Below are positions 13,771 to 63,470 of a DNA stretch of 64,000 nucleotides, piece after piece; position 1 is the stretch's first letter, and each line of letters starts with the position of its first letter. This DNA comes from Candidatus Woesearchaeota archaeon (GTDB taxonomy: Archaea > Nanobdellota > Nanobdellia > Woesearchaeales > 21-14-0-10-32-9). The stretch lies in the NCBI GenBank assembly GCA_020854775.1, contig JAHKLZ010000008.1:8221-72220 (forward strand), given 5' to 3'. The translations under genes and the position numbers were made by a program. A model generated the notes under the pieces. The model did no database searches. It was not told where the DNA came from and saw only the letters and a program-made list of their open reading frames with translations.

Positions 13771-15918
13771 TTAAGAATACTTAGCGATTAAACTTAGTAA
13801 TTCATCTCCGAACTTCTTTATTTTCTCAGAACCAATACCTTTAACAAGACCTAGTTCATCTACATCCAAAGGAGCTTTTTCTATTAATTCTAGAAGAGTA
13901 GAATCATGAAAAATAGTAAAAGCAGGAATTCCTAAAGAAATACTCTTATTTTTTCTCCAAACCTTTAACTCTTCTAAAAGTAACAACTTAGCTTTATTAT
14001 TCAAACGAGAATCAACAAAAGACTCCGATAAAACATCTTTTTTTCCTTTATCACTAAACATGAACTTAGCAGATTTACCTTTCTCAGCCAATAAACGCAT
14101 CTCAGAAGAAATAAAATAAGAAGGATTTTTACCCGAATAAGTCATCACGAGTTTTTTCTTAGCCCTACTAACAGCTACGTAAAACAAACGACGCTCCTCT
14201 TCTTCTTTATCATAATCCTTAATCTTAATAAGCTCAGCAACAGGGTGCTCAGAAGTCTTACAAGGAAAATTCATAGAGTTACAACCAAGAACAAAAACTA
14301 ATTCAGATTCTAAACCCTTAATTGCGTGAACCGTAGCCAAAGTAACTTCTCCTTTCTTAGCATCAACTTTCTTAATTTGTTCATCACTCTTCACAACGTG
14401 AGAAACATTATTATTTTTAAGAAGCCTAGAAAATTCATTAAGCGTCTTATTAGTGCGAGCAAGAACAAAAATTTCTTCTCTAGGAATTTCAGAACCTAGA
14501 ATTGCTTGAAGAACAAATAAATGCTCTTCTTCCTCTGACTTAAATTTTAAAAGCTTCAAAAAACCTTCTTCTTCCAACACAGATTCTAAGTCAGGCATAT
14601 TCAATTTTTTAATCGCCAAATTCATAAATTGAACCAACAATTTTTGAGAACGATAATTTTTTCTTAAAAAAATAACTTCTACATCATCATGACTTTGTTC
14701 AAATTCCATTATGAACTTAATATCAGAACCACGCCAACCAAAAATAGATTGTCTAGGATCACCAACACAAAACAAATTCTCAGAATTTAACAATTCAACC
14801 AAATCCATCTGAGAAGAATTAACATCTTGAAATTCATCAATTAAAATATGATCAAATTCAGGAACTAAAGAAGAATTATTTCTAAAAAAAGATAAAGCAT
14901 CAAGTAACTGATCAGAAAAATCACGAAGACCCCTCTCAGCCATGTATTCCTCTAATTCTTTACAAGTATTATACAGTAATTGAGCGCTTCTTAAAGAACT
15001 AGAAGGCGCATCCTTAGAAAAATCAACTAATCCACCTCTTGCCTTAAAAGTATCCAAAGCCAAAAAACAATCATTCATGAATATGGCTGCTAATTGATCA
15101 TCAGTTTTACCGCGTCTTTGAGCATAAGAAAAATAAATACTTAAAGCATCTCTTAAATTCAAACCTTGCTCTTGCAAAGCCCTCCTAATACCAACAATTT
15201 TATCTTTAAAAGACATAACCCTTACGGGCTTATCATAAATCAAATCGTTATGCAATCTTAAAACTTTTTCACAAAAAGAATTAAAAGTTTCAACCCTAGC
15301 ATTAGTAATTCCTGAAGATTCTAATCTATACATCATTTCTTGTCTTGCTTTCCTAGTAAAAGTAATCGCTAAAATCCTAGAAGGATTAACACCCCTGTAC
15401 TTAATCAAGAATTCCACTCTCTTAGTTAAAACCCTAGTCTTACCAGAACCCGCACCCGCGACACAAACAACGTTCTTAGAAGGAGTAACCACTGCTTTTT
15501 TTTGTTCATCATTCAAATCTTTAAGAAAAAAATCAAAATTCTTAAACAATTCTTTCTCAGAGCTTGAAATAAAAGTTTTTTGATTATTAGAAAAAGCCAA
15601 TTTTCGTTTAAAAAAAGTAGGCTTACGAAGCTCATCAACACCCTTCACAGAAATCTTTAAGACCTTAGCATATTTGTTAATAGTACTAAAAGAGATTTGT
15701 TCAATGAAACCATGCCTTATCAGAGAATCAACAACCATGCTTAATTCTTCTTTAGAATAAGCCAAATCACCAAAACAATTTAATTCATGCAATTTATTAC
15801 GCTCAACAGAAGGATTATTAATATCACCAATTAAAATATCAATCAATAAATTTTTCCCAACATTAAAAGGAACCTCTTTTAAAGCTCTCAAAACAAGTAA
15901 ATAATCTTTTTCGTCCAT
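13771..15918 (-). CDS. UvrD/PcrA-type superfamily 1 DNA helicase with an N-terminal winged-helix (RQC-like) extension and a C-terminal HRDC-like domain
   Basis: Walker A VCVAGAGSGKTRVLTKRV. UvrD motif II ILIDEFQDVN. RQSIFGWRG. C-terminal IPAFTIFHDSTLLELIEKAPLDVDELGLVKGIGSEKIKKFG is HRDC-like. N-terminal LLVLRALKEVPFNVGKNLLIDILIG is winged-helix-like. Confidence 0.8.
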   Translation of the reverse strand: MDEKDYLLVLRALKEVPFNVGKNLLIDILIGDINNPSVERNKLHELNCFGDLAYSKEELSMVVDSLIRHGFIEQISFSTINKYAKVLKISVKGVDELRKPTFFKRKLAFSNNQKTFISSSEKELFKNFDFFLKDLNDEQKKAVVTPSKNVVCVAGAGSGKTRVLTKRVEFLIKYRGVNPSRILAITFTRKARQEMMYRLESSGITNARVETFNSFCEKVLRLHNDLIYDKPVRVMSFKDKIVGIRRALQEQGLNLRDALSIYFSYAQRRGKTDDQLAAIFMNDCFLALDTFKARGGLVDFSKDAPSSSLRSAQLLYNTCKELEEYMAERGLRDFSDQLLDALSFFRNNSSLVPEFDHILIDEFQDVNSSQMDLVELLNSENLFCVGDPRQSIFGWRGSDIKFIMEFEQSHDDVEVIFLRKNYRSQKLLVQFMNLAIKKLNMPDLESVLEEEGFLKLLKFKSEEEEHLFVLQAILGSEIPREEIFVLARTNKTLNEFSRLLKNNNVSHVVKSDEQIKKVDAKKGEVTLATVHAIKGLESELVFVLGCNSMNFPCKTSEHPVAELIKIKDYDKEEEERRLFYVAVSRAKKKLVMTYSGKNPSYFISSEMRLLAEKGKSAKFMFSDKGKKDVLSESFVDSRLNNKAKLLLLEELKVWRKNKSISLGIPAFTIFHDSTLLELIEKAPLDVDELGLVKGIGSEKIKKFGDELLSLIAKYS

Positions 15919-16009: not shown

Positions 16010-19000
16010 TTAAGAGCAACCAGTAGTATTGCCACAATCTTCACAAACAGCACAACTACCACTTCTCTTAAGCTTCATAGATCCACAACCAGAACATTGC
16101 TCACCAGTATAACCCTTAGATTTAGCTTCATAAACCTCTGCTTCTTTTCCAGATATTCTTAGTTGTCTTTCCTTCGAAGGCTCAGGTAATTTAGTATCTG
16201 ATTTAGTATCTGAAGCCTCCATGGTTTTAACGTGGACAAAGTCCTTTCTACCAAGATACTCATAACCAAGAGTTCTAAACACATAATCCAATATGGACGT
16301 AGCGTTTTTAATCACAGGATGACCCATAACCATACCTGCGGGTTCAAATCTTGTAAATGTAAAAGAATCCACGAATTCTTCTAAAGGAACACCATACTGC
16401 AATCCCTTAGATATAGCTACTGCGAAACAATTCAATAAAGCACCATAAGAAGCGCCTTCCTTGTAAGTATCAAGGAAAATCTCTCCTAAAGAACCATCTG
16501 CATATTCGCCTGTTCTAAGGAAAACTTTTTGACCACCAACAACTGCTTCTTGAACAAAACCCGTGCGCTTAGCAGGCATCTTTTTTTGCTTAAGCTTATA
16601 CACAACTTGCTCATGAATCTTCTTACTATCAACAGTTTCATCAATGTCATCAGATTGCTTAAGCAACAATAATTCTGCATCTTCCTCAGAAGACGAACTA
16701 AGCGGTTGACTAAGCTTACACCCATCCCTGTAAAGAGCAACTGCTTTAACCATTAATTTCCAAGCATCTTTATGAGCACGAGCAACATCATTAATACTAG
16801 CATGCTTATCCATGTTAATAGTTTTACTAATAGCCCCTGAGATAAAAGGTTGAACCGCAGCCATCATTTGAATATGACCTGAATAATTAATGAATCTTTC
16901 ACCAGTTTTACCACATCTATTCGCACAATCAAACACAGAAATATGCTCTTGCTTAAGATGAGGTGCCCCCTCAACAGTCATAGTACCACAAACATACTTC
17001 TCTGCTTTAGCAATATCTTCTTTAGAAAAACCAAGAGCTTCCAAAACATTAAGCTCAGGCTTATTTATTTGCTCATCAGTGAAACCAAGCTCTTTAAGAG
17101 CATCATCTCCTAGAGTCCACTTAGTGAAAGCATATTTCAACTCAAAAACAGTTTTAAGCTGAGACTCAACTTTTTGAATAGCCACGTCAGTGAAACCTTT
17201 TTCTTTTAAAGATTCATGATTAATACCAGGACTATCTTTTAAAGTCCCACTACCAACACAATAAGTAACTATTTCTTTAATTTCTTGATCATTATAGCCA
17301 AGAACTTCAAGAGCAGAAGGAACTGATTGGTTAACAATCTTAAAAAAACCTCCCCCAGCTAACTTTTTGAATTTGACTAAAGCAAAATCAGGCTCAATAC
17401 CAGTAGTATCACAATCCATGACTAACCCGATCGTGCCCGTAGGCGCAAGAACAGTTACTTGAGCGTTCCTATAACCATACTCTTCACCCCAAGATAATGC
17501 ATTATCCCAACAAGAACGAGCATGTTTAATCATATAATCAGGACAAGCTTCAGGACTTAAACCAACAGGCTTAATAGTTAAACCTTCATACTCAGAAGGC
17601 TTAGCATTATACGCTGCGCGTCTATGATTTCTAATTACACGAAGCATATCATCTCTGTTATTATCATATCTTGAAAAAGGACCTTGAGCTCTAGCAAGTT
17701 CAGCAGAAGTAGTATAGCTCTGACCACCCATTATAGCAGTAATAGAAGACGCAAAACCTCTTCCTTCCGGACTATCATATGCTAAGCCCATCCTCATCAA
17801 TAAAGCACCAATGTTAGCGTAACCTAAACCAAGGGTTCTGTACAAATAACTCTTTTGAGCAATTTCCTTACTAGGAAACTGAGCCATCAAAACAGAAATC
17901 TCTAAGACAGTAGTCCATAAACGCACCGCGTGTTTAAACTTATCAACATCAAACATCTTGGTACCTTCATCATAAAACTTAGTCAAATTAAGACTGGCCA
18001 AATTACAAGCAGTATCATCCAAGAACATGTATTCAGAACAAGGATTACTAGCATTAATTCTTCCATCGTTAGGACATGTATGCCACTCATTTATAGTATC
18101 ATCAAATTGAACACCTGGATCCGCACTCATCCAAGAAGAATAATTAATCAAATCCCAAAGCTTAGAAGCCTTAATTGTTTTGTGAACCTTACCATCAGTT
18201 CTTCTAAGTAAGTGCCAATCATCATCTTTATGCAAAGCTTCAAAAAACTTGTTAGGAACACGAACAGAGTTATTACTGTTTTGTCCAGCAACAGTCAAAT
18301 AAGCTTCAGATTCATAATTAGAATCCATAACTAAAAAATCAATTTCTTTTTTATCTTGCTTAACAAGCATCAAAGCACGCTGAACATAATTAATAGAAAC
18401 ATCAGCATCAAGCGCTTTTTTAACTGCTTTTCTTAAAACAGCATTTTCTTTAAGATTAACTGATTTCTTTTCATACGCAATTTTCATTATGTTATTAAGA
18501 TGATTCTTACAAGTAATACTACCTTGAACAAGCGCAGCTACTTTTTGTTCTTCTTTCATCTTCCAAGAAACAAAATCTTCAATTTCTGGATGATCAAGAT
18601 CTAAACAAACCATTTTAGCAGCTCTACGAGTAGTACCTCCTGATTTAATAGCACCAGCAGCCCTATCAAAAACAGTTAAAAAAGATAACAAACCAGAAGA
18701 TTTTCCACCACCAGATAAGTGTTCGCCTTTACCTCTAATCGTAGAGAAATTAGTACCTGTGCCAGAACCATATTTGAATAATCTTACTTCCCTGGTTATT
18801 AAATCAAATAAGCCACCTTCATTCACTAAGTCATCTCTTATTGTTTGAATAAAACAAGCATGAGGCTGTGGCCTACTATAAGCATCTTCTGATTTTCTGA
18901 CTTCACCACTTTCAGGATCCGCGTAGAAATGACCTTGAGGTTCCCCTCTGATGCCATAAGCAGTAAATAATCCTGTATTAAACCATTGCGGACTGTTAGG

Positions 19001-19480
19001 CGCGCACATTTGATTAAGCAACATATACACTAATTCATCATAAAACGCGGCCGCATCATTATCTGATTTGAAATAACCGTAACGAACACCCCAATCAGTC
19101 CAACAACCTGCTAATCTATGAACTACTTGTTTAACGCTACGTTCAGGACCGAGAACTAATTTGCCATTTTCATCAACAGCGAATCTGCCTTCATCAGTTA
19201 TTTGAGGAACACCTTTTTTTCTTAAATATTTTTGAGCCAATATATCCGTAGCCATTTGGCTCCAAGAAGAAGGAACTTCTACTTGTTTTATTTCATAAAC
19301 AACTGATCCATCATTATTCTTTATAATTGAATCTTTGTATGTATACTCAAATAATTCATAAGGAGACTTTCCTTCATGAGTAAACATTCTCTTAACTGAT
19401 AAACCCTTATCAGAAAAAACCGCGTTGGTTATGTTGTCAACAAACTTCTTACCGTACACATTGTATTTTTTTTCATCCAT
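16010..19480 (-). CDS. nrdJ: Adenosylcobalamin-dependent ribonucleotide reductase, class II (NrdJ), with C-terminal zinc ribbon
   Basis: 1156 aa. Active-site NPCSEYMFLDDTACNLASLNL. Thiyl-radical Cys loop. C-terminal CSGCGS...CAVCEDCG. Starts 17 nt downstream of nrdR. Confidence 0.9.
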   Translation of the reverse strand: MDEKKYNVYGKKFVDNITNAVFSDKGLSVKRMFTHEGKSPYELFEYTYKDSIIKNNDGSVVYEIKQVEVPSSWSQMATDILAQKYLRKKGVPQITDEGRFAVDENGKLVLGPERSVKQVVHRLAGCWTDWGVRYGYFKSDNDAAAFYDELVYMLLNQMCAPNSPQWFNTGLFTAYGIRGEPQGHFYADPESGEVRKSEDAYSRPQPHACFIQTIRDDLVNEGGLFDLITREVRLFKYGSGTGTNFSTIRGKGEHLSGGGKSSGLLSFLTVFDRAAGAIKSGGTTRRAAKMVCLDLDHPEIEDFVSWKMKEEQKVAALVQGSITCKNHLNNIMKIAYEKKSVNLKENAVLRKAVKKALDADVSINYVQRALMLVKQDKKEIDFLVMDSNYESEAYLTVAGQNSNNSVRVPNKFFEALHKDDDWHLLRRTDGKVHKTIKASKLWDLINYSSWMSADPGVQFDDTINEWHTCPNDGRINASNPCSEYMFLDDTACNLASLNLTKFYDEGTKMFDVDKFKHAVRLWTTVLEISVLMAQFPSKEIAQKSYLYRTLGLGYANIGALLMRMGLAYDSPEGRGFASSITAIMGGQSYTTSAELARAQGPFSRYDNNRDDMLRVIRNHRRAAYNAKPSEYEGLTIKPVGLSPEACPDYMIKHARSCWDNALSWGEEYGYRNAQVTVLAPTGTIGLVMDCDTTGIEPDFALVKFKKLAGGGFFKIVNQSVPSALEVLGYNDQEIKEIVTYCVGSGTLKDSPGINHESLKEKGFTDVAIQKVESQLKTVFELKYAFTKWTLGDDALKELGFTDEQINKPELNVLEALGFSKEDIAKAEKYVCGTMTVEGAPHLKQEHISVFDCANRCGKTGERFINYSGHIQMMAAVQPFISGAISKTINMDKHASINDVARAHKDAWKLMVKAVALYRDGCKLSQPLSSSSEEDAELLLLKQSDDIDETVDSKKIHEQVVYKLKQKKMPAKRTGFVQEAVVGGQKVFLRTGEYADGSLGEIFLDTYKEGASYGALLNCFAVAISKGLQYGVPLEEFVDSFTFTRFEPAGMVMGHPVIKNATSILDYVFRTLGYEYLGRKDFVHVKTMEASDTKSDTKLPEPSKERQLRISGKEAEVYEAKSKGYTGEQCSGCGSMKLKRSGSCAVCEDCGNTTGCS

Positions 19481-19497
19481 TCATATTCACCTAAACA

Positions 19498-19947
19498 CTA
19501 CTTCGAATCAAGCTTTTCCAGCTCTTTTCTAAACGACTCAATGTCTTGAAAATCATTATAAACAGAAGCAAAACGTATATAAGCGACTTGATCAAGTTTT
19601 TTTAATTGCTTAATAATAATTTCACCTATATTCTTTGTTGTTACTTCTTTTTTTGTATTAATCCTTAATTTTGATTCAACTTTTGAAGCAATAGCCTCTA
19701 TTTGTTCTTGAGTAATAGGTCTTTTTTGACAAGCAATTTGCAATGATTTTATGACTTTTTGTCTGTCAAAAATTTCTTTAGTACCATTCTTTTTTAGTAT
19801 CATTATGTTAATAAGTTCTATTTGTTCATAAGTTGTGAAACGTTTTTCGCACTTCAAACATTCCCTTCTTCTTCTTGTAATGTCTTCTTCTGTTTCTCTG
19901 GTTTCTAAAACCTTAGTTTCTGGATAGCTACAAAATGGACATTTCAT
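19498..19947 (-). CDS. nrdR: Transcriptional repressor NrdR (zinc ribbon plus ATP-cone)
   Basis: MKCPFCSYPETKVLETRE...RRRRECLKCEKRFTTYE is the canonical NrdR zinc ribbon. An ATP-cone follows. The track ORF starts at a TTG at 19965, but the canonical MKCPFC ATG is at 19945-19947. Confidence 0.85.
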   Translation of the reverse strand: MKCPFCSYPETKVLETRETEEDITRRRRECLKCEKRFTTYEQIELINIMILKKNGTKEIFDRQKVIKSLQIACQKRPITQEQIEAIASKVESKLRINTKKEVTTKNIGEIIIKQLKKLDQVAYIRFASVYNDFQDIESFRKELEKLDSK

Positions 19948-20029
19948 TTTTTTATCAAGGAGCAAACACTAAAAAATATAAGAGCAAAAACCTGAAATGT
20001 TACTACATATAGGTTAAAGCTAATCTTTG

Positions 20030-20047
20030 AACACTACCCCTAGTGTT
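20030..20047 (+). promoter_or_regulatory. Candidate NrdR box (palindrome aACACTA-cccc-TAGTGTt) ~83 nt upstream of nrdR
   Basis: The half-sites acacta/tagtgt match the outer halves of the bacterial NrdR-box consensus acaCwAtATaTwGtgt. A perfect 7-bp inverted repeat with a 4-nt spacer. A degenerate half-site acactaaaaaatataa lies at 19966..19981. Confidence 0.4.
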
Positions 20048-20285
20048 TAAACAAGTTCACAAGAGGTTTATAAATTTATCTGTTATTTCATACTATGTTT
20101 TGTAAAACATCATTTTTTTATACATATTAAATGATATGCTTTCAAAAACTAATTTCAAAAAATAACAAACCTAAGAAAAGGGTCTGAAAGGCTTCAAATT
20201 ATAAAAGATTTATATATTAGTTTAATTTACAACTATAAAGGAAGGCACAAAATTAGCAAAAAGCTTTTCTGTGGGGTGAAGCACA

Positions 20286-20600
20286 GTGGATGAAAACATA
20301 GAACTAGGCGGAAAAATATTTTTATCAGGATTTAAGAATCTGAAAAGAGATGAATTACTAATAGCGAAAAAACTCATAGGGAGCTACGCTAGAAAATTCG
20401 GAGACGGACTAAAGAATTACGAATCATTAAATCTGCACTTAAAACCAGTACACAAAACTACGCCAGACTCTGAAAAATATGAATTACACATAAAATTAAT
20501 TCACGATGGTAAAACAACCAACACAGAAGTAGTAGATCATAACGTGTTCGTATGCATAGATTCAGCACTTAAAAAAATAGAAGAACAAGTAATAAGATAA
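20286..20600 (+). CDS. Ribosome hibernation factor-like protein (HPF/RaiA/YfiA fold, tentative)
   Basis: 104 aa. The beta-alpha-beta-beta-beta-alpha pattern aligns with HPF: IELGGKIFLSGF / DELLIAKKLIGSYARKF / SLNLHLKPVH / KYELHIKLIHDGKTTNTEVV / VFVCIDSALKKIEEQV. GTG start, preceded by a GGGGTGA Shine-Dalgarno. Confidence 0.4.
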   Translation: MDENIELGGKIFLSGFKNLKRDELLIAKKLIGSYARKFGDGLKNYESLNLHLKPVHKTTPDSEKYELHIKLIHDGKTTNTEVVDHNVFVCIDSALKKIEEQVIR

Positions 20601-44721: not shown

Positions 44722-46938
44722 TTATCTTTCGAATTTAGGAACGAATAATTCTTTGTGTTCTTCTTCCATCTCCACGACTTTACCCATAATAGTTAAGTCA
44801 TGATGATATCTTACATCCTTAATATTATAAGAAGGATAATACAAATACAAGAAATTATTATACTTCAAATCCTCTACATTAATGGAAAAGAAATCAGGTT
44901 CATTAATGAATAATCCGCCTATTACGACTGAGTCGTTAAATGCTGTTTCATTAAATGTTACTTCTTCTTCACCTTTGAATAAGTCCCTAAAGAAACCAGA
45001 ACTAATAGAATATGTTTTTTCAGGAACTAACAAAACAGGATTTTGTTCATTCGCACCAAGAACTCTTTCAGAAACAAGAATAACTTCGTAATTACCAGGT
45101 AATAAAGAAGTTTTTATCTCAGTTTCAGGATAAGACAAATTAAATATTCTTACAAAGCCCGGATTATCTTTCATTATTAACATAACAGTTAATATTTCAT
45201 TTTCTTCAAGAACACGACCATCTTCCATTGCTAAATCCAAAGACCATGTTCTTTTCTCAGCGTCTTCTAATTCATTAATTTCTACGTTATTAACAAAATA
45301 AGATTTTTTTCTAGGCCTAATAATTATTTCTTTTTCAGGATACACTTCTAATATGAATTCATAAGACTCCTCAACTGTTAAATCAGAATCATAACTAACT
45401 TGGTAGTTCCCAGTTAAACTATGAAATTCTCCTCCGAAGCAAGGAGGAAGAAAACCTTCAATAACTGCTGAACCATCTTTCATCTTAGAATTACCAACAG
45501 GAATCGTAACGTCCAAACAAGTATATGCAAGAGCAAAATCCTCAACAGGACTCTCATCATAACCATTTCTAACAATTACTTTAACAGGAATAGTTCTTTG
45601 ATCAGGATACCCGAATCCACCAAAATCATCTTCTAATTCATAAGAATCATAAACTATTTCTTCGAAGTCAGTTAACAAGAACTCGTTTTGTCTAACATTA
45701 ACTTCAACTACGAACCTAAAAATATAACCTTCGTCATTAAAAGCAAAGGGATCCTCTACGGTAACTAGTACAGGATAAGCAATATCATAAAAGAATTCAT
45801 AATCAGTCATAGCAAAATTAAACAAACCAAGCATACTAATTTGGAGCTTAGGCACCGCGGTAATAACAGGACCAAAACCAGGCTTTATGTTCAAATACAT
45901 AGGCCAAGAAGGCATATAATCAAAAGAAACCCTTGTTCTTTCAAGCTTATCAGCATCAATATCAAAAGGTGGAAAAATAAAAGATGAATAAATCAAGTTA
46001 GCATAAGGATCATTAGTTAAAGGAATAAAAGAATCATAAGCACCCATAACTTGCAAGAAACCAGAATTATCAGCTAATTCAGTTCTCAAAAGTTCTTTAG
46101 ATTCAAACAAGTTCCAAATAGCAGGAGAACTAACAGTGTGCTCACTATAACGACTAATAGGGGGAATAACAGCATTTTTACCACCCATACTCATTAATTC
46201 AAGCACTTTAATAGTGTACTCTTCCAAGAAAGAAGCATCAGAATAAAGTTGTGATTCATACAATAATTGCTTAGCAAAATCAAAAGTTTTTCTAAATTCC
46301 AAATCAACAACGTCATTAAACTTATTAAGCTTAGCAACAGTGTCATCCTCAAAGAACTCAACTTCTAAACCCCAATCAAGCTCAACAAAAACATCATCCA
46401 TTCTAAACAAAACATTAGCAAAAGGCTCAGAATAAGAAATAGAATACAAAGAAGCATAATTACTAAAATCATTCAAACAATCAACGATGTTAGATTCAAT
46501 GTAATCCTCAACTTGAGCCTTAACAGAATTAGGGCCGGATTCAAGAGATGGCACACCCATAATTAAAGAAACACTATCACCACCAGGATTATTAGGAGAA
46601 TAATACCAATAAGGAATAACTTGATTACTACCAGGAAAAAACTCTAAAGCAGTATTCAAATACTCAGGGACTAAACCATGCTGAAACTGAGAAACATCTA
46701 TGTAACCCCCTTGCAAACCCACCCTTATTAGAGCTTCTTTAGTTAAAGAACCAACACAATAATTAACATCAAGAACTAAAGGACTAAGCCTAGCGTCAAA
46801 CTCAGTAACCAAAGCATCAGTAGGATCAGGCTCTACTTCATCAAACAAAAGAAAAAAAGCAATAAAAACTAAAACAAACACTATTAAACCCAAAATAACA
46901 AACACCGTAACTTGACCCTTTTTTTTATCCCAAACCAT
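44722..46938 (-). CDS. Large membrane-anchored extracytoplasmic protein (738 aa), no recognisable domains
   Basis: N-terminal signal-anchor VTVFVILGLIVFVLVFIAFFLLF, then ~700 aa of acidic, aromatic-rich sequence. A 3-nt gap to the upstream 1379-aa gene suggests an operon. Confidence 0.6.
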   Translation of the reverse strand: MVWDKKKGQVTVFVILGLIVFVLVFIAFFLLFDEVEPDPTDALVTEFDARLSPLVLDVNYCVGSLTKEALIRVGLQGGYIDVSQFQHGLVPEYLNTALEFFPGSNQVIPYWYYSPNNPGGDSVSLIMGVPSLESGPNSVKAQVEDYIESNIVDCLNDFSNYASLYSISYSEPFANVLFRMDDVFVELDWGLEVEFFEDDTVAKLNKFNDVVDLEFRKTFDFAKQLLYESQLYSDASFLEEYTIKVLELMSMGGKNAVIPPISRYSEHTVSSPAIWNLFESKELLRTELADNSGFLQVMGAYDSFIPLTNDPYANLIYSSFIFPPFDIDADKLERTRVSFDYMPSWPMYLNIKPGFGPVITAVPKLQISMLGLFNFAMTDYEFFYDIAYPVLVTVEDPFAFNDEGYIFRFVVEVNVRQNEFLLTDFEEIVYDSYELEDDFGGFGYPDQRTIPVKVIVRNGYDESPVEDFALAYTCLDVTIPVGNSKMKDGSAVIEGFLPPCFGGEFHSLTGNYQVSYDSDLTVEESYEFILEVYPEKEIIIRPRKKSYFVNNVEINELEDAEKRTWSLDLAMEDGRVLEENEILTVMLIMKDNPGFVRIFNLSYPETEIKTSLLPGNYEVILVSERVLGANEQNPVLLVPEKTYSISSGFFRDLFKGEEEVTFNETAFNDSVVIGGLFINEPDFFSINVEDLKYNNFLYLYYPSYNIKDVRYHHDLTIMGKVVEMEEEHKELFVPKFER

Positions 46939-46941
46939 TTT

Positions 46942-49900
46942 TTATTCACTCACCAATTTTTGACAAATATAATTCTTATCCCCAACGACATCAAAATAAT
47001 CACGAAGACCATTAACACTCACAGAGAACTCTAAACAAACCTTAACGAAGTCACCTTCATGCCTTATAATCTTACTACCCATACCCCCGAAGTTCTCAGG
47101 AACACCACTAGACGCCATAGGCTCCTCAGAACCAATAACTAACTTAGTAAAATCAACTTTATTACCTGCAGAGTCATACATATAAATATTATAACCTAAC
47201 TCACCACCTTTACTAGTATAAATTCCTCCTTCAACCCAATAATTATAATAAGAATCCTCACCAGGAACTCTTTGAATACTTGATTTTCTACCCGTTATAA
47301 AAGCGCCAGGCCTATGACCCGCAGCACCCGCCTTAACCAATAAACCACCAGTATCAGGACTAACCGCTCTAAAACTCTTACTACAGAAACCCCAATCACC
47401 ACTACCCGTATCAGCGAACCACTGAGAAAGCTGACCCATAGCTGTATGCCTTCCAAAATCAGAAGAAGACTCATCATCATCTCCCCCAAAGAAAGAACCA
47501 AGACTCCTAATAGCAGTTATACCACTAGAAACACCCCACGCAGTTTTAACACCCGTAGTAATAGAACCAAAATGATCCTCAAACTTCATATCAACAGCAT
47601 TATTCCTTTGCTGACGAGACAAATTCTTTTCAGCGCCTTTAATAAGCTTAGCCGTATCCCTACTCTCCTTATTAATATTTGACCTTGAACATTCATCAAT
47701 ATTAAAAGGTTCACTATTACATAAAGCTAATGCTTCCGAATAAGCAGTATGTTTTTCTTGAGCCCTACGACAAGACCTAGACTGCTCATTACTTTCACAA
47801 GAATCTATAACCTCTTGACGAGCTGCATTCACCACTTCTTTATCTATAATTTTATTAGATTCAAAAATACTAATACCTGAAGCAACACGATTTAACTCAT
47901 CAATATTTTCCTGATGTTCAGCTTTAGTTTTATAAAAATCATTCAAAAGTTTAACTTCAGTAGCTAAACCTTTCTTAAGATCAGGATACTTCTCAATTAA
48001 TGCTTCATATTTCTTTTGGTTAGCTTCAGAAACCATATTAAAAGATTCAACGTTACCGAAAATACCGACGAATTTATTTATATCATGACTACTAAGCTGA
48101 GTTTCTAAATCTGAAATCTCTTTTTCCACACTAGCTAATTCCTTTTCTAACTCTTGTTTTGATTCTTCAAGTCTTATTAAATCCGCTAAATGCTCATTTT
48201 CCTCACCTATAATCTCAGGATGTTTTTCAAGATCTTCTATTTCAACCCTAATACTTTCCAACTCTTTTTCTAAATTTAAATACTTATCAGTTTTTCTGTT
48301 CAAATCATTATTAATTACTTCATACTTTCTAATATTAGATCTGGCAAAAGAATCTTGATTGAAATTACCAATAAGTTTACCTTCAGGAGAATAAACATTA
48401 TAAGAATCAACAACTATTTTATCACCATCAAATCTGACATTATCAGGACTAACAATTCCTATGACTGTTTCAGTAACTTCATCCTTCTTTGTGATTCTTT
48501 CAACTACTTGGAACTGATAATCATCCTCATCATAAACCAAGTACTTGTTACCACCTAAAGATTCGCTGTAAGATAAATCAACAGCTTTAGGGAAGTGACC
48601 TACTTGTTGATCAATAGCTAATCTGCTCTTAATAATCCTATCAGCCTGAGTTAAAGGAACCTGACAGAAAGGAGCAGGATCAACCTTGTTAATATTCTTA
48701 GCTTGTTCAACCACGCTCTTCAAAGTGCTTATGAAAGTTCCTAAGCTTTGAACAAACACATTAGTTAAACACGCACCTTTAAGCAAGTTATTAACAGAGT
48801 TACCTTGAGCCATTATGCTACACGCAATAGGGAAAGCAAAACCAAACAAATTATAAGGATTATTAACAACATCGCTGAATCTAGAAGAAAAATCCCTAAA
48901 CATATTAACAAAAGGAATCGCATCTAAAACACCTGTAGCTGTGTAAACACACGTAGAATAAGATCTTTCAGCCTCACAATAAGAAACACTTTGACCATGT
49001 TCAATCATACCAGTAGTTAAACAATCAAGATAATTACACTCAATGGATTGTTCAACTTTCAAATGATGAATAACAGCAGGAACACACTGCATAGCATAAG
49101 CAACATATTTACTCTTGTAAGGATCGTAGAAACTAGAATAACTATCTCTACCAAGCATTTGAGGAACCATATCCGCATCAACAGATAAATAATTCATAAA
49201 ATCATCCAAGCCACTAACCAAATCAAAACCAACAATATCAGAAACAAAACTACCTTTACACATTAAGTAATTACAAAACTTAGCTGCATTCTTCACCATT
49301 TTATCATCTGATTTAAGAAGATTAATTGAAGACCCTGTTTCAATCATACCCAGTCCCGCATTTTGTTGACCCATCATTAAACCCACAACTTCTAAGACTT
49401 CACCAGCAGAACTCAATAAGCCCCCAACACTTTCTATGCCTGTTAACATAGTGCAAAACCTTATAGCGTTATCCATACTAGAATCCAACCCTTCAAAGAC
49501 TTCTTCGGATCTCTCAATTTGCTCCCTTGTTGACTCAATACTATTATAGATCTTATCAGTTAAAGTATCCCTATTATCAAGAGTAATACTAAAAGTAAGA
49601 TTTACTTTTTCAGGCTGAGAATAAAAATAACCATCTTTCTTAGATAATATTTCAAATTCACAAACATGCTTTAATTCACGAATATCAGAGTACCTATTAT
49701 TGCTAGGATTATCAAGACCTGTTTGTCTTAAACCAACCCTAACATAAACTTTTTTAGAATCTTTATCAAAATTAAGAACATCAAACTTAGTAACATCTCC
49801 GCGAGTACCTGTTTCATTCACAATAACAGGAACACAACTACCAGTGTTCCCTTTAACACTTAACAATTCAGCACCTGAAACTCCTGATAAAATAGCTTCA

Positions 49901-51081
49901 ACATAAAAAGTTCTTTCATAACCCATGTTACGAACATTCATTTTATTAGAAGACTGCACAGTAGCACCAAGACTCCAAAAATTAGGAATAATTTCTCTTT
50001 CAACTTCTACTAATTCAACTTCTAAATCTTCACGAACCTTATTTCCCGCAGCATCAGTAAAAATAACAGGAACAACATAAGTTCCTTTAGTAGTAACTAA
50101 AGACCTAACCCCCGCGGAACAATCAAATAATCCATCACGCAAAATACACTGACCAGTAATATTAGCCGAACCAACACTTTCACCTATTACTAACATATCC
50201 AAGACCGGGCTAACCGCGTCATAAACCTTAGCACTAATCCTGAACGTGTCATCAACACCAGTAAATCCAATTTCTCTAGCATCCACAACTTTTATTTCCT
50301 TAATCTCAGGAGGAGAAGCATCGCAAACTAAATTAAAATTATTATGCGTCACTTGTCTTCCTGCATCATCACTACTAGGACGACCCTCAAAAGGAAACAA
50401 TGAAGCTCTAAATGCTTGATTATCTTCACAAACAATATTAACAGTACCATTACAATTATCAAAATCACAACCAATTATGTAACCCCTAGTACCCCCCAAG
50501 CTAAAACCTAAAAGACCACGAAAAAAACCAGCTTCTGAACTTTCAAATTTTAAAATAATATTATTAAAACCTGAAGAGATATAACAAACTTCTTCGTGAC
50601 AAAACCTAGTCCCTATTAAATTAACCTTAGGATTAGCAGTCGTTCTCTTAAGAGGAATAATATTAGAAGAAACATCATCACCACGTTTTGCTATTATTTC
50701 AACTTCAGAAACATGAGTTGATTTTTCAAGAATTAACCCTCTAAACAAACAATTATAATATTCTTCTCTTTGTTCACAAGACGCTTTGCTTATATCCCAA
50801 GAACCATATTGACTCACATAACTATTCGTATAAATATTATCGTTTAAGTCACTAACATCAAAAACTATTCCTTGAAGAAAATCAGCATGAACTTTAACTT
50901 CTAAGTCAACAACGATAGGCGCCCTCTCAGAATAATAAGTAAGAGTTTTATTATTCCAAACTAATCTAGAATCAGTAATTTCAAGCGCGAACACACTATT
51001 TAACAAAGAAATAAAAATGAACAATAACAAAAATACCTTAACACCTTTCAAATGACTCACACCTTTTTTGAATTTAAACAT
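46942..51081 (-). CDS. Giant secreted protein (1379 aa): signal peptide, Cys-rich N-terminal region, central coiled coil, Gly/Ser-rich C-terminal domain. No recognisable domains
   Basis: N-terminal KVFLLLFIFISLLNSVFA|LEI signal. The first 700 aa are Cys-rich. Heptad segments LEKELESIRVEIEDLEKH...ELEKELASVEKEISDLETQL. Lies 43 nt downstream of the AI-2E gene. Confidence 0.6.
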   Translation of the reverse strand: MFKFKKGVSHLKGVKVFLLLFIFISLLNSVFALEITDSRLVWNNKTLTYYSERAPIVVDLEVKVHADFLQGIVFDVSDLNDNIYTNSYVSQYGSWDISKASCEQREEYYNCLFRGLILEKSTHVSEVEIIAKRGDDVSSNIIPLKRTTANPKVNLIGTRFCHEEVCYISSGFNNIILKFESSEAGFFRGLLGFSLGGTRGYIIGCDFDNCNGTVNIVCEDNQAFRASLFPFEGRPSSDDAGRQVTHNNFNLVCDASPPEIKEIKVVDAREIGFTGVDDTFRISAKVYDAVSPVLDMLVIGESVGSANITGQCILRDGLFDCSAGVRSLVTTKGTYVVPVIFTDAAGNKVREDLEVELVEVEREIIPNFWSLGATVQSSNKMNVRNMGYERTFYVEAILSGVSGAELLSVKGNTGSCVPVIVNETGTRGDVTKFDVLNFDKDSKKVYVRVGLRQTGLDNPSNNRYSDIRELKHVCEFEILSKKDGYFYSQPEKVNLTFSITLDNRDTLTDKIYNSIESTREQIERSEEVFEGLDSSMDNAIRFCTMLTGIESVGGLLSSAGEVLEVVGLMMGQQNAGLGMIETGSSINLLKSDDKMVKNAAKFCNYLMCKGSFVSDIVGFDLVSGLDDFMNYLSVDADMVPQMLGRDSYSSFYDPYKSKYVAYAMQCVPAVIHHLKVEQSIECNYLDCLTTGMIEHGQSVSYCEAERSYSTCVYTATGVLDAIPFVNMFRDFSSRFSDVVNNPYNLFGFAFPIACSIMAQGNSVNNLLKGACLTNVFVQSLGTFISTLKSVVEQAKNINKVDPAPFCQVPLTQADRIIKSRLAIDQQVGHFPKAVDLSYSESLGGNKYLVYDEDDYQFQVVERITKKDEVTETVIGIVSPDNVRFDGDKIVVDSYNVYSPEGKLIGNFNQDSFARSNIRKYEVINNDLNRKTDKYLNLEKELESIRVEIEDLEKHPEIIGEENEHLADLIRLEESKQELEKELASVEKEISDLETQLSSHDINKFVGIFGNVESFNMVSEANQKKYEALIEKYPDLKKGLATEVKLLNDFYKTKAEHQENIDELNRVASGISIFESNKIIDKEVVNAARQEVIDSCESNEQSRSCRRAQEKHTAYSEALALCNSEPFNIDECSRSNINKESRDTAKLIKGAEKNLSRQQRNNAVDMKFEDHFGSITTGVKTAWGVSSGITAIRSLGSFFGGDDDESSSDFGRHTAMGQLSQWFADTGSGDWGFCSKSFRAVSPDTGGLLVKAGAAGHRPGAFITGRKSSIQRVPGEDSYYNYWVEGGIYTSKGGELGYNIYMYDSAGNKVDFTKLVIGSEEPMASSGVPENFGGMGSKIIRHEGDFVKVCLEFSVSVNGLRDYFDVVGDKNYICQKLVSE

Positions 51082-61505: not shown

Positions 61506-63470
<1,965 letters not shown>

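Follow-up and report, generated by a model that had tools for sequence, protein, structure and literature searches.

A predicted tandem NrdR operator behind a conserved archaeal TATA box in the nrdR-nrdJ operon of a Candidatus Woesearchaeota archaeon

NrdR has been studied as a bacterial master regulator of deoxyribonucleoside triphosphate (dNTP) supply and as an antibacterial target. Here, we analyse the promoter region of an operon that pairs nrdR with nrdJ, the gene of a class II ribonucleotide reductase (RNR), in a 64-kb stretch of DNA (64,000 nucleotides, hereafter the window) from a Candidatus Woesearchaeota archaeon, a member of the DPANN. The presence of NrdR in archaea is already known: it has been reported from 22% of archaeal genomes, against 77% of bacterial ones (PMC13584703), recent papers giving this presence as a bare statistic, and a 2025 preprint still called it absent from archaea. 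The large survey of NrdR boxes covers bacterial species only (PMC13584703). No description of an archaeal NrdR operator or promoter was found in the searchable literature, and no joint treatment of NrdR and DPANN was found among its best-ranked entries. The promoter-operator layout presented here, together with the variant of box 1 and of NrdR residue 15 (E15) that characterizes the clade, appears to be undescribed.

Among the closest described systems is the autoregulated nrdRJ operon of Streptomyces coelicolor (structures 7p37, 7p3f and 7p3q; PMC9110341), in which, as in the window, nrdR precedes nrdJ. In both, the operon's own promoter contains two 16-bp partial palindromes separated by a linker of 15-16 bp, located at or over the transcription start (predicted in our case), and both NrdR proteins consist of a zinc (Zn)-ribbon followed by an ATP-cone and align over their full length. 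The Streptomyces promoter is of the sigma-70 type with -35 and -10 elements, whereas that of the window has an archaeal TATA box and a putative transcription factor B recognition element (BRE). Moreover, box 1 of the window combines a G/C centre with perfect ACACTA/TAGTGT arms, its NrdR carries E15, and its NrdJ is the long 1156-aa form, nearest to the NrdJs of DPANN and of the Fibrobacteres-Chlorobi-Bacteroidetes (FCB) group and not of the actinobacterial type.

The archaeal repressors MDR1, LrpA and Phr bind just downstream of the TATA box and block the recruitment of RNA polymerase. The operator of the window would be placed likewise, between the TATA box and the early transcribed region, over the predicted start. 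These repressors differ in being helix-turn-helix proteins that sense metals, amino acids or heat, whereas NrdR combines a Zn-ribbon with an ATP-cone, responds to ATP and dATP and requires a pair of phased boxes. A further comparison is provided by the haloarchaeal nrdR-nrdAB and nrdR-nrdBA operons, in which, according to Lundin et al. (2010, PMC3019208), nrdR likewise heads an RNR operon in an archaeal host; the passages considered describe how these operons are organised and contain no operator or promoter architecture. That paper describes the nrdR-nrdAB operons as being of bacterial origin, RNR genes and nrdR thus crossing domains, and the haloarchaeal operons as encoding class I RNRs in halophiles, as plasmid-borne in some cases, and as recent, with traceable donors. 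In contrast, the window carries a class II RNR in a DPANN host, in an arrangement ancestral to a large clade.

We consider it likely that positions 20000..20080 of the window form the promoter-operator of an autoregulated nrdR-nrdJ operon. Its elements and the genes that follow them are, in the direction of transcription:

20075..20080, minus strand: GATAAA, a purine-rich BRE-like element directly upstream of the TATA box.
20067..20074, minus strand: archaeal TATA box of the distal promoter P1, TTTATAAA, invariant in 10 of 10 loci.
20041..20044, minus strand: transcript start predicted for the distal promoter from its spacing to the TATA box; it falls on positions 3-6 of box 1.
20031..20046, minus strand: predicted NrdR box 1, ACACTAGGGGTAGTGT, with perfect 6+6 arms and a G/C centre.
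20016..20030, minus strand: inter-box linker, 15 bp.
20000..20015, minus strand: predicted NrdR box 2, AACCTATATGTAGTAA, with 6 of the 6 conserved positions.
19498..19947, minus strand: nrdR, 149 aa, ATG at 19947, N-terminus MKCPFC.
19487..19492, minus strand: AGGTGA, Shine-Dalgarno sequence of nrdJ within the 17-nt nrdR-nrdJ gap, found by sequence inspection.
16010..19480, minus strand: nrdJ, 1156 aa, adenosylcobalamin-dependent class II RNR.

An NrdR site is defined as two 16-bp partially palindromic boxes, 15-16 bp apart, with strong conservation at C4, A6, A8, T9, T11 and G13, of which C4 and G13 are the critical ones (PMC13584703). The two critical positions are present in both boxes of the window; box 1 has four of the six conserved ones (C4, A6, T11 and G13), G8 and G9 being the deviating ones. 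As predicted from the sequence, the operator is a tandem NrdR site of canonical geometry. The preliminary description of this DNA had proposed as operator an 18-bp palindrome upstream of nrdR. This palindrome, aACACTAccccTAGTGTt, is indeed found at 20030..20047, 82-83 nt upstream of the nrdR ATG, and it belongs to the operator as box 1 of the tandem site; it is, however, only one half of it, box 2 (20015..20000) having been missed.

The window contains a single exact copy of ACACTA-N4-TAGTGT, and 100 shuffled sequences contained none. Likewise, the pair of boxes is the sole tandem site of its score in the window (10 or more of 12 key positions, 23 or more of 32 matches to the consensus and a linker of 15 or 16), and no such site arose in 200 first-order Markov simulations. 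A search of the window with the bacterial consensus ACACWATATATWGTGT, allowing up to 3 mismatches, returned no match, and a search for the outer arms with 2 mismatches gave a count at chance level. Since the strict search is empty and the relaxed one at chance, single-box consensus searches are uninformative here, and it is the tandem geometry and its conservation that carry the signal.

To assess conservation, we compared the window with nine other Woesearchaeota loci (L161-L169), whose NrdRs are 68-86% identical. All nine have nrdR followed by nrdJ, with a methionyl-tRNA synthetase gene nearby in each. The same module was observed in 10 of 10 loci: A(A/G/C)TTTATAAA, then 16-21 variable nucleotides, box 1, a variable linker of 15 or 16 nt, and box 2. 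The arms of box 1 are invariant or nearly so, reading ACACTA-N4-TAGTGT with ACGCTA in one locus, while box 2 follows the pattern nnnCT(A/G)nnnnn(A/C)AGT(A/G)n, with an invariant core of C4, T5, A12, G13 and T14 and with A6, A8 and T9 conserved in at least 90%. The linker sequence is not conserved and its length fits the 15-16 bp rule in every locus (PMC13584703). Downstream of the boxes, the stretch between box 2 and the ATG is 39-162 nt long, and the leader of 84-207 nt is divergent. A MAFFT alignment of the 10 loci accordingly shows invariant islands at exactly three places, namely the TATA octamer, the arms of box 1 and the core of box 2.

An nhmmer model built from the operators of the clade found one strong site per locus (E ~1e-9 to 1e-10), always upstream of nrdR, and no other strong match in the window or in ~160 other nrdR loci. 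The recurrence of the palindrome near nrd genes of related genomes, on which the preliminary description had made its proposal depend, is borne out in these loci. The operator accompanies nrdR-nrdJ even where the divergent upstream gene is a different one. We had also considered it as an operator of the divergent gene at 20286..20600, and rejected this since it stays with nrdR where that neighbour differs. Tandem boxes were also found in 8 more distant archaeal loci. They lie 18-25 nt past a TATA-like element in two other Woesearchaeota metagenome-assembled genomes (MAGs), in archaeon ARS1176 and before a Micrarchaeota nrdJ, and abut or overlap such an element in Nanobdellati, Nanoarchaeota and Bathyarchaeota MAGs. 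The Micrarchaeota locus (L171) has no adjacent nrdR; its boxes, GCACAACAGGTTGTGT and GCACAATATATTGTGT, are separated by a 16-nt linker and located ~120 nt upstream of nrdJ, 24-25 nt after CTTATAAAT, and the centre is G/C in its box 1 and AT in its box 2.

Many first genes of the window's transcription units have a TTTAWAWA octamer 24-40 nt, mostly 30-34 nt, before the start codon, which suggests that their mRNAs are leaderless. Calibrated on these apparently leaderless genes, the distance from TATA box to transcript start is taken as ~30 nt. The gap between TATA box and box 1 is 20 nt in the window and 16-21 nt across the 10 loci, with a spacer of varying sequence, so that the start predicted in the relatives falls on box 1 positions 2-7. 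The two boxes would thus cover ~+1 to +47 of the predicted transcript. In bacteria, NrdR boxes are located upstream of the transcription start, which they also overlap (PMC9110341). In each of the 10 loci, the same two A residues stand 2-3 nt upstream of the TATA box. The GATAAA element, which we take to resemble the archaeal BRE consensus, would orient the promoter towards nrdR.

From this arrangement we infer a start position, NrdR binding, its dependence on nucleotides and an occlusion of the polymerase that would work together as follows. When dNTPs are plentiful, an NrdR tetramer carrying dATP and ATP would, by analogy with bacterial NrdR, bind both boxes. With the boxes at ~+1 to +47, TBP and TFB may stay on the TATA box, while the bound NrdR would prevent the recruitment or the escape of RNA polymerase, and both nrdR and the gene of the B12-dependent reductase would be switched off. 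At high ATP, NrdR would be released. The proposal that an NrdR autoregulation circuit has been retained in an archaeon appears to hold, the operator being kept in all 10 loci while its flanks diverge.

The identities of both genes are established. NrdR scores 174.1 bits against the TIGR00244 equivalog (cutoff 124.65). Its Zn-ribbon (PF22811, 62.1 bits, cutoff 27.2) contains C3, C6, C30 and C33 in two CxxC motifs, all four invariant in the NrdR alignment, and is followed by an ATP-cone (PF03477, 80.3 bits, covering 1-87 of the 88 profile positions). Along its whole length, the protein can be aligned with the structures from Escherichia coli (9fzf, E = 2.5e-38) and S. coelicolor (7p37). The residues of S. 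coelicolor NrdR that contact DNA are R12, D15, R17, R26-29 and R37 (PMC9110341). The corresponding positions of the window NrdR are K12, E15, R17, R25-28 and R36; the contact residues are conserved, with E for D at residue 15.

NrdJ scores 1782 bits against NF005736 (cutoff 1737) and 580 against TIGR02504 (cutoff 400), and it comprises Ribonuc_red_2_N (PF08471), the barrel (PF02867), TSCPD and, at its C-terminus, a tail rich in Cys. Among solved structures, 7b9p is the nearest (1128 bits). Coordinates and curated profile scores thus agree that an NrdR gene lies 17 nt upstream of a 1156-aa class II RNR, as had been noted initially. The two genes are co-directional and adjacent, in the same order as in the nine relatives, and GGTGA/GGAGG-like motifs such as the one before nrdJ also occur 5' of other operon-internal genes in the window. 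The view that this adjacency is typical of bacteria did not hold up in our sample: with nrdJ at most 5 kb from nrdR as the criterion, and counting only loci with a title, 3 of the 69 bacterial loci and 5 of the 11 archaeal ones show it.

On sequence grounds the host is an archaeon, of Candidatus Woesearchaeota. We call it so because the window contains the exosome/proteasome superoperon (RNase P component 2, proteasome alpha, SBDS, Rrp4, Rrp41 and Rrp42) and encodes aIF5B, an archaeal marker, and because its NrdR matches, at 100% identity, a database entry that bears the name 'Candidatus Woesearchaeota archaeon'.

Many close relatives of NrdJ are 1400-2600 aa long and contain intein/homing-endonuclease domains (PF14528, PF14890), among them P0299, P0304, P0329, P0337, P0346, P0352, P0353, P0356, P0360 and many of P0121-P0270. 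These align to the query in several separate stretches, the window NrdJ being without intein. Two full-length Candidatus Kapaibacterium NrdJs of ~1150 aa (P0328 and P0351) bear the NCBI name 'transcriptional regulator'; this is probably a mis-annotation, perhaps derived from a weak TACO1/YebC-like Pfam match.

Some points weigh against the promoter-operator reading. The AT that is usual at the centre of a box is missing from box 1, where the AT fraction from C4 to G13 is 0.5, as against 0.875 in box 2 and 0.63-1.0 in native bacterial promoter regions (Table 4, PMC13584703). Throughout the clade, this centre is rich in G/C (GGGG, CTTG, CTGG, TCGG, GCAG) and never AT. We regard this as a variant that does not disqualify the box, because a CG centre scarcely alters the affinity of NrdR in vitro (PMC13584703). 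In addition, the predicted nrdR leader of ~97 nt is atypical where most first genes of the window look leaderless, and no clear Shine-Dalgarno sequence was found upstream of nrdR. No binding or expression results for an archaeal NrdR were found in the searchable literature. Finally, a second TATA-like element lies closer to the gene:

19974..19981, minus strand: TATA-like TTATATTT, starting at -34 from the nrdR ATG and overlapping a 'weaker half-site' of the preliminary description; tentative.

This element may tentatively be seen as a proximal promoter giving a leaderless transcript, in which case the boxes would lie upstream of the core promoter, at ~-53 to -99. NrdR would then act from upstream, through DNA bending, hindrance of TFB/TBP, a roadblock to distal read-through, or even activation. 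The -34 position is typical of the leaderless genes in the window, such a promoter would fit the lack of a clear Shine-Dalgarno sequence, and a similar element is located at -34 in L161. Against this, the element is not conserved: none is seen in L163 or L165, the other loci are ambiguous, and the distance from box 2 to the ATG changes from locus to locus, whereas the distal TTTATAAA and the distance between it and box 1 show little or no variation across all 10 loci. We therefore regard TTATATTT as a possible, though rather unlikely, working promoter of nrdR.

Far less probable is that the boxes are a non-functional relic, brought in when a bacterial nrdR-nrdJ cassette was transferred, or that some unrelated factor of the archaeon binds them. 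The atypical G/C centre of box 1 would fit either, but the boxes are invariant while linker, spacer and leader diverge among loci whose NrdRs are only 68-86% identical. Moreover, the conserved positions are those critical to NrdR (C4 and G13, with A6/A8/T9 in box 2), the 15/16-bp phasing is kept, and NrdR itself is intact, with conserved DNA-contact residues. The least probable reading, which we put slightly lower still, is that of the preliminary description, with the palindrome at 20030..20047 and the 'weaker half-site' at 19966..19981 as the operator: AACACT in the latter fits one arm of a box, but its other half is without C4 and A6, it is misplaced (18 bp from box 2, where a linker of 15-16 bp is required, and 65 bp centre-to-centre from the palindrome, where 31-32 bp is needed; PMC13584703), and it is absent from the related loci, whereas box 2 at 20015..20000 is conserved and properly spaced.

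Within the promoter-operator reading, the clade departs from bacterial systems in its NrdR as well as in box 1. In S. coelicolor, D15 is one of the two residues near the bases in the major groove (PMC9110341, Fig. 3). The change from D to E is conservative and is fixed in the core clade (14 of 14 sequences), whereas D15 is found in 68 of the 70 bacterial NrdRs sampled and in 11 of the 16 NrdRs from other archaea. The base-reading motif around residues 14-16 (~19900..19908) thus reads L-E-T-R in the clade and (I/V)-D-S-R in bacteria. Among loci with detectable boxes upstream of nrdR, CTA...TAG half-sites accompany the E15-type NrdRs (T at position 5 in 41 of 44 half-sites), and the D15-type NrdRs are mostly accompanied by CAA...TTG (A at position 5 in 27 of 40). 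We regard this association as no more than suggestive: the loci concerned include L161-L169, L041, L060 and L143, and most E15 loci come from one clade and are non-independent. As a counter-example, E. coli NrdR has D15 and yet uses CTA...TAG boxes (PMC13584703).

One could speculate that the NrdR of the clade has been re-tuned and re-wired, with the L-E-T-R motif, an operator changed in step to strict CTA...TAG, and the perfect palindrome of box 1, with its G/C centre, placed exactly on the start of an archaeal TATA promoter. We hold this to be doubtful. If it were true, E15-type NrdRs would read DNA more narrowly than the bacterial D15-type, and the clade would offer a natural system for how a nucleotide-sensing repressor of bacterial type blocks the archaeal transcription machinery.

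The whole regulatory unit had been proposed to be a horizontal acquisition from bacteria. The best 120 homologues of the window NrdR (55-86% identical) belong to Woesearchaeota or Nanoarchaeia wherever they are named, and bacterial NrdRs are 45-54% identical among the matches listed. The NrdR loci listed by protein-anchored scans of genome and metagenome contigs are 45-58% identical and come from both bacteria and archaea. NrdJ matches at 68-86% identity are likewise from Woesearchaeota or Nanoarchaeia, and at ~60-63% Micrarchaeota and Diapherotrites are mixed with Ignavibacteria, Kapabacteria, Bacteroidia and Calditrichaeota of the FCB group. With neighbour-joining (NJ) bootstraps, the Woesearchaeota core clade of NrdR obtained 96.5% and a grouping of DPANN with a few bacteria of the candidate phyla radiation (CPR) 0.5%; for NrdJ, the Woesearchaeota clade reached 98-100% and the FCB clade 100%, with 5-46% for relations among clades. 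Since each gene forms a well-supported clade and the gene order is conserved, descent within the Woesearchaeota clade is vertical. The deeper nodes, on which the direction of transfer depends, are poorly supported.

Given that the RNR is ~60% identical between the domains, cross-domain transfer of the nrdR/nrdJ genes is very likely. A horizontal acquisition is plausible; it would be old, ancient relative to the Woesearchaeota clade. Both proteins do have bacterial affinities, as the proposal implied, but nothing shows that they and the operator arrived jointly as a cassette. In the Ignavibacteria and Calditrichaeota loci checked among close relatives of the NrdJ (one each), and in the Micrarchaeota locus, nrdJ is not preceded by nrdR.

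The surroundings of the promoter were examined for other signals. A riboswitch or structured leader was rejected, the predicted leader of ~100 nt showing no unusual structure (z = -0.61), and Rfam gave no match in the window at the gathering threshold and none in 19400..20400 at E up to 1. Sites resembling sigma-70 promoters around the operon are not enriched (15 found, 16.8 expected). Further upstream, the inverted repeat ATCATTT-N13-AAATGAT (20109..20135) falls inside a block (minus strand: ATCATTTAATATGTATAAAAAAAnGATG) whose conservation upstream of the nrdR promoter is seen in L161-L163, the three closest loci. This repeat may serve another factor as its site, or may belong to the promoter of the divergent gene at 20286..20600, which encodes 104 aa.

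Elsewhere in the window, 13771..15918 (minus strand) encodes a 715-aa helicase whose core, of the UvrD/PcrA type, has an RQC domain on its N-terminal side and an HRDC domain on its C-terminal side. This fusion of RecQ accessory domains to a UvrD core is unusual, and the same architecture is found downstream of nrdJ in L163. At 44722..51081 (minus strand), two adjacent open reading frames (ORFs) of 1379 and 738 aa have no Pfam match at E <= 1e-5; ORFs of ~1320-1350 aa without Pfam matches adjoin metG in L164-L166 and L169. A bacterial-type DNA gyrase subunit B (TIGR01059, 1005 bits) is encoded at 61557..63470 (plus strand), and L171, the Micrarchaeota locus, likewise has a gyrB, just downstream of its nrdJ.

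Taken as a whole, the finding is an incremental addition to a well-understood system and brings no new principle. It provides a concrete layout, with a TATA box, box 1 on the predicted start, a linker of 15/16 bp and box 2, through which a bacterial-type circuit could work with TBP, TFB and RNA polymerase, and it would mean that tight control of dNTPs is kept in the small genomes of DPANN.

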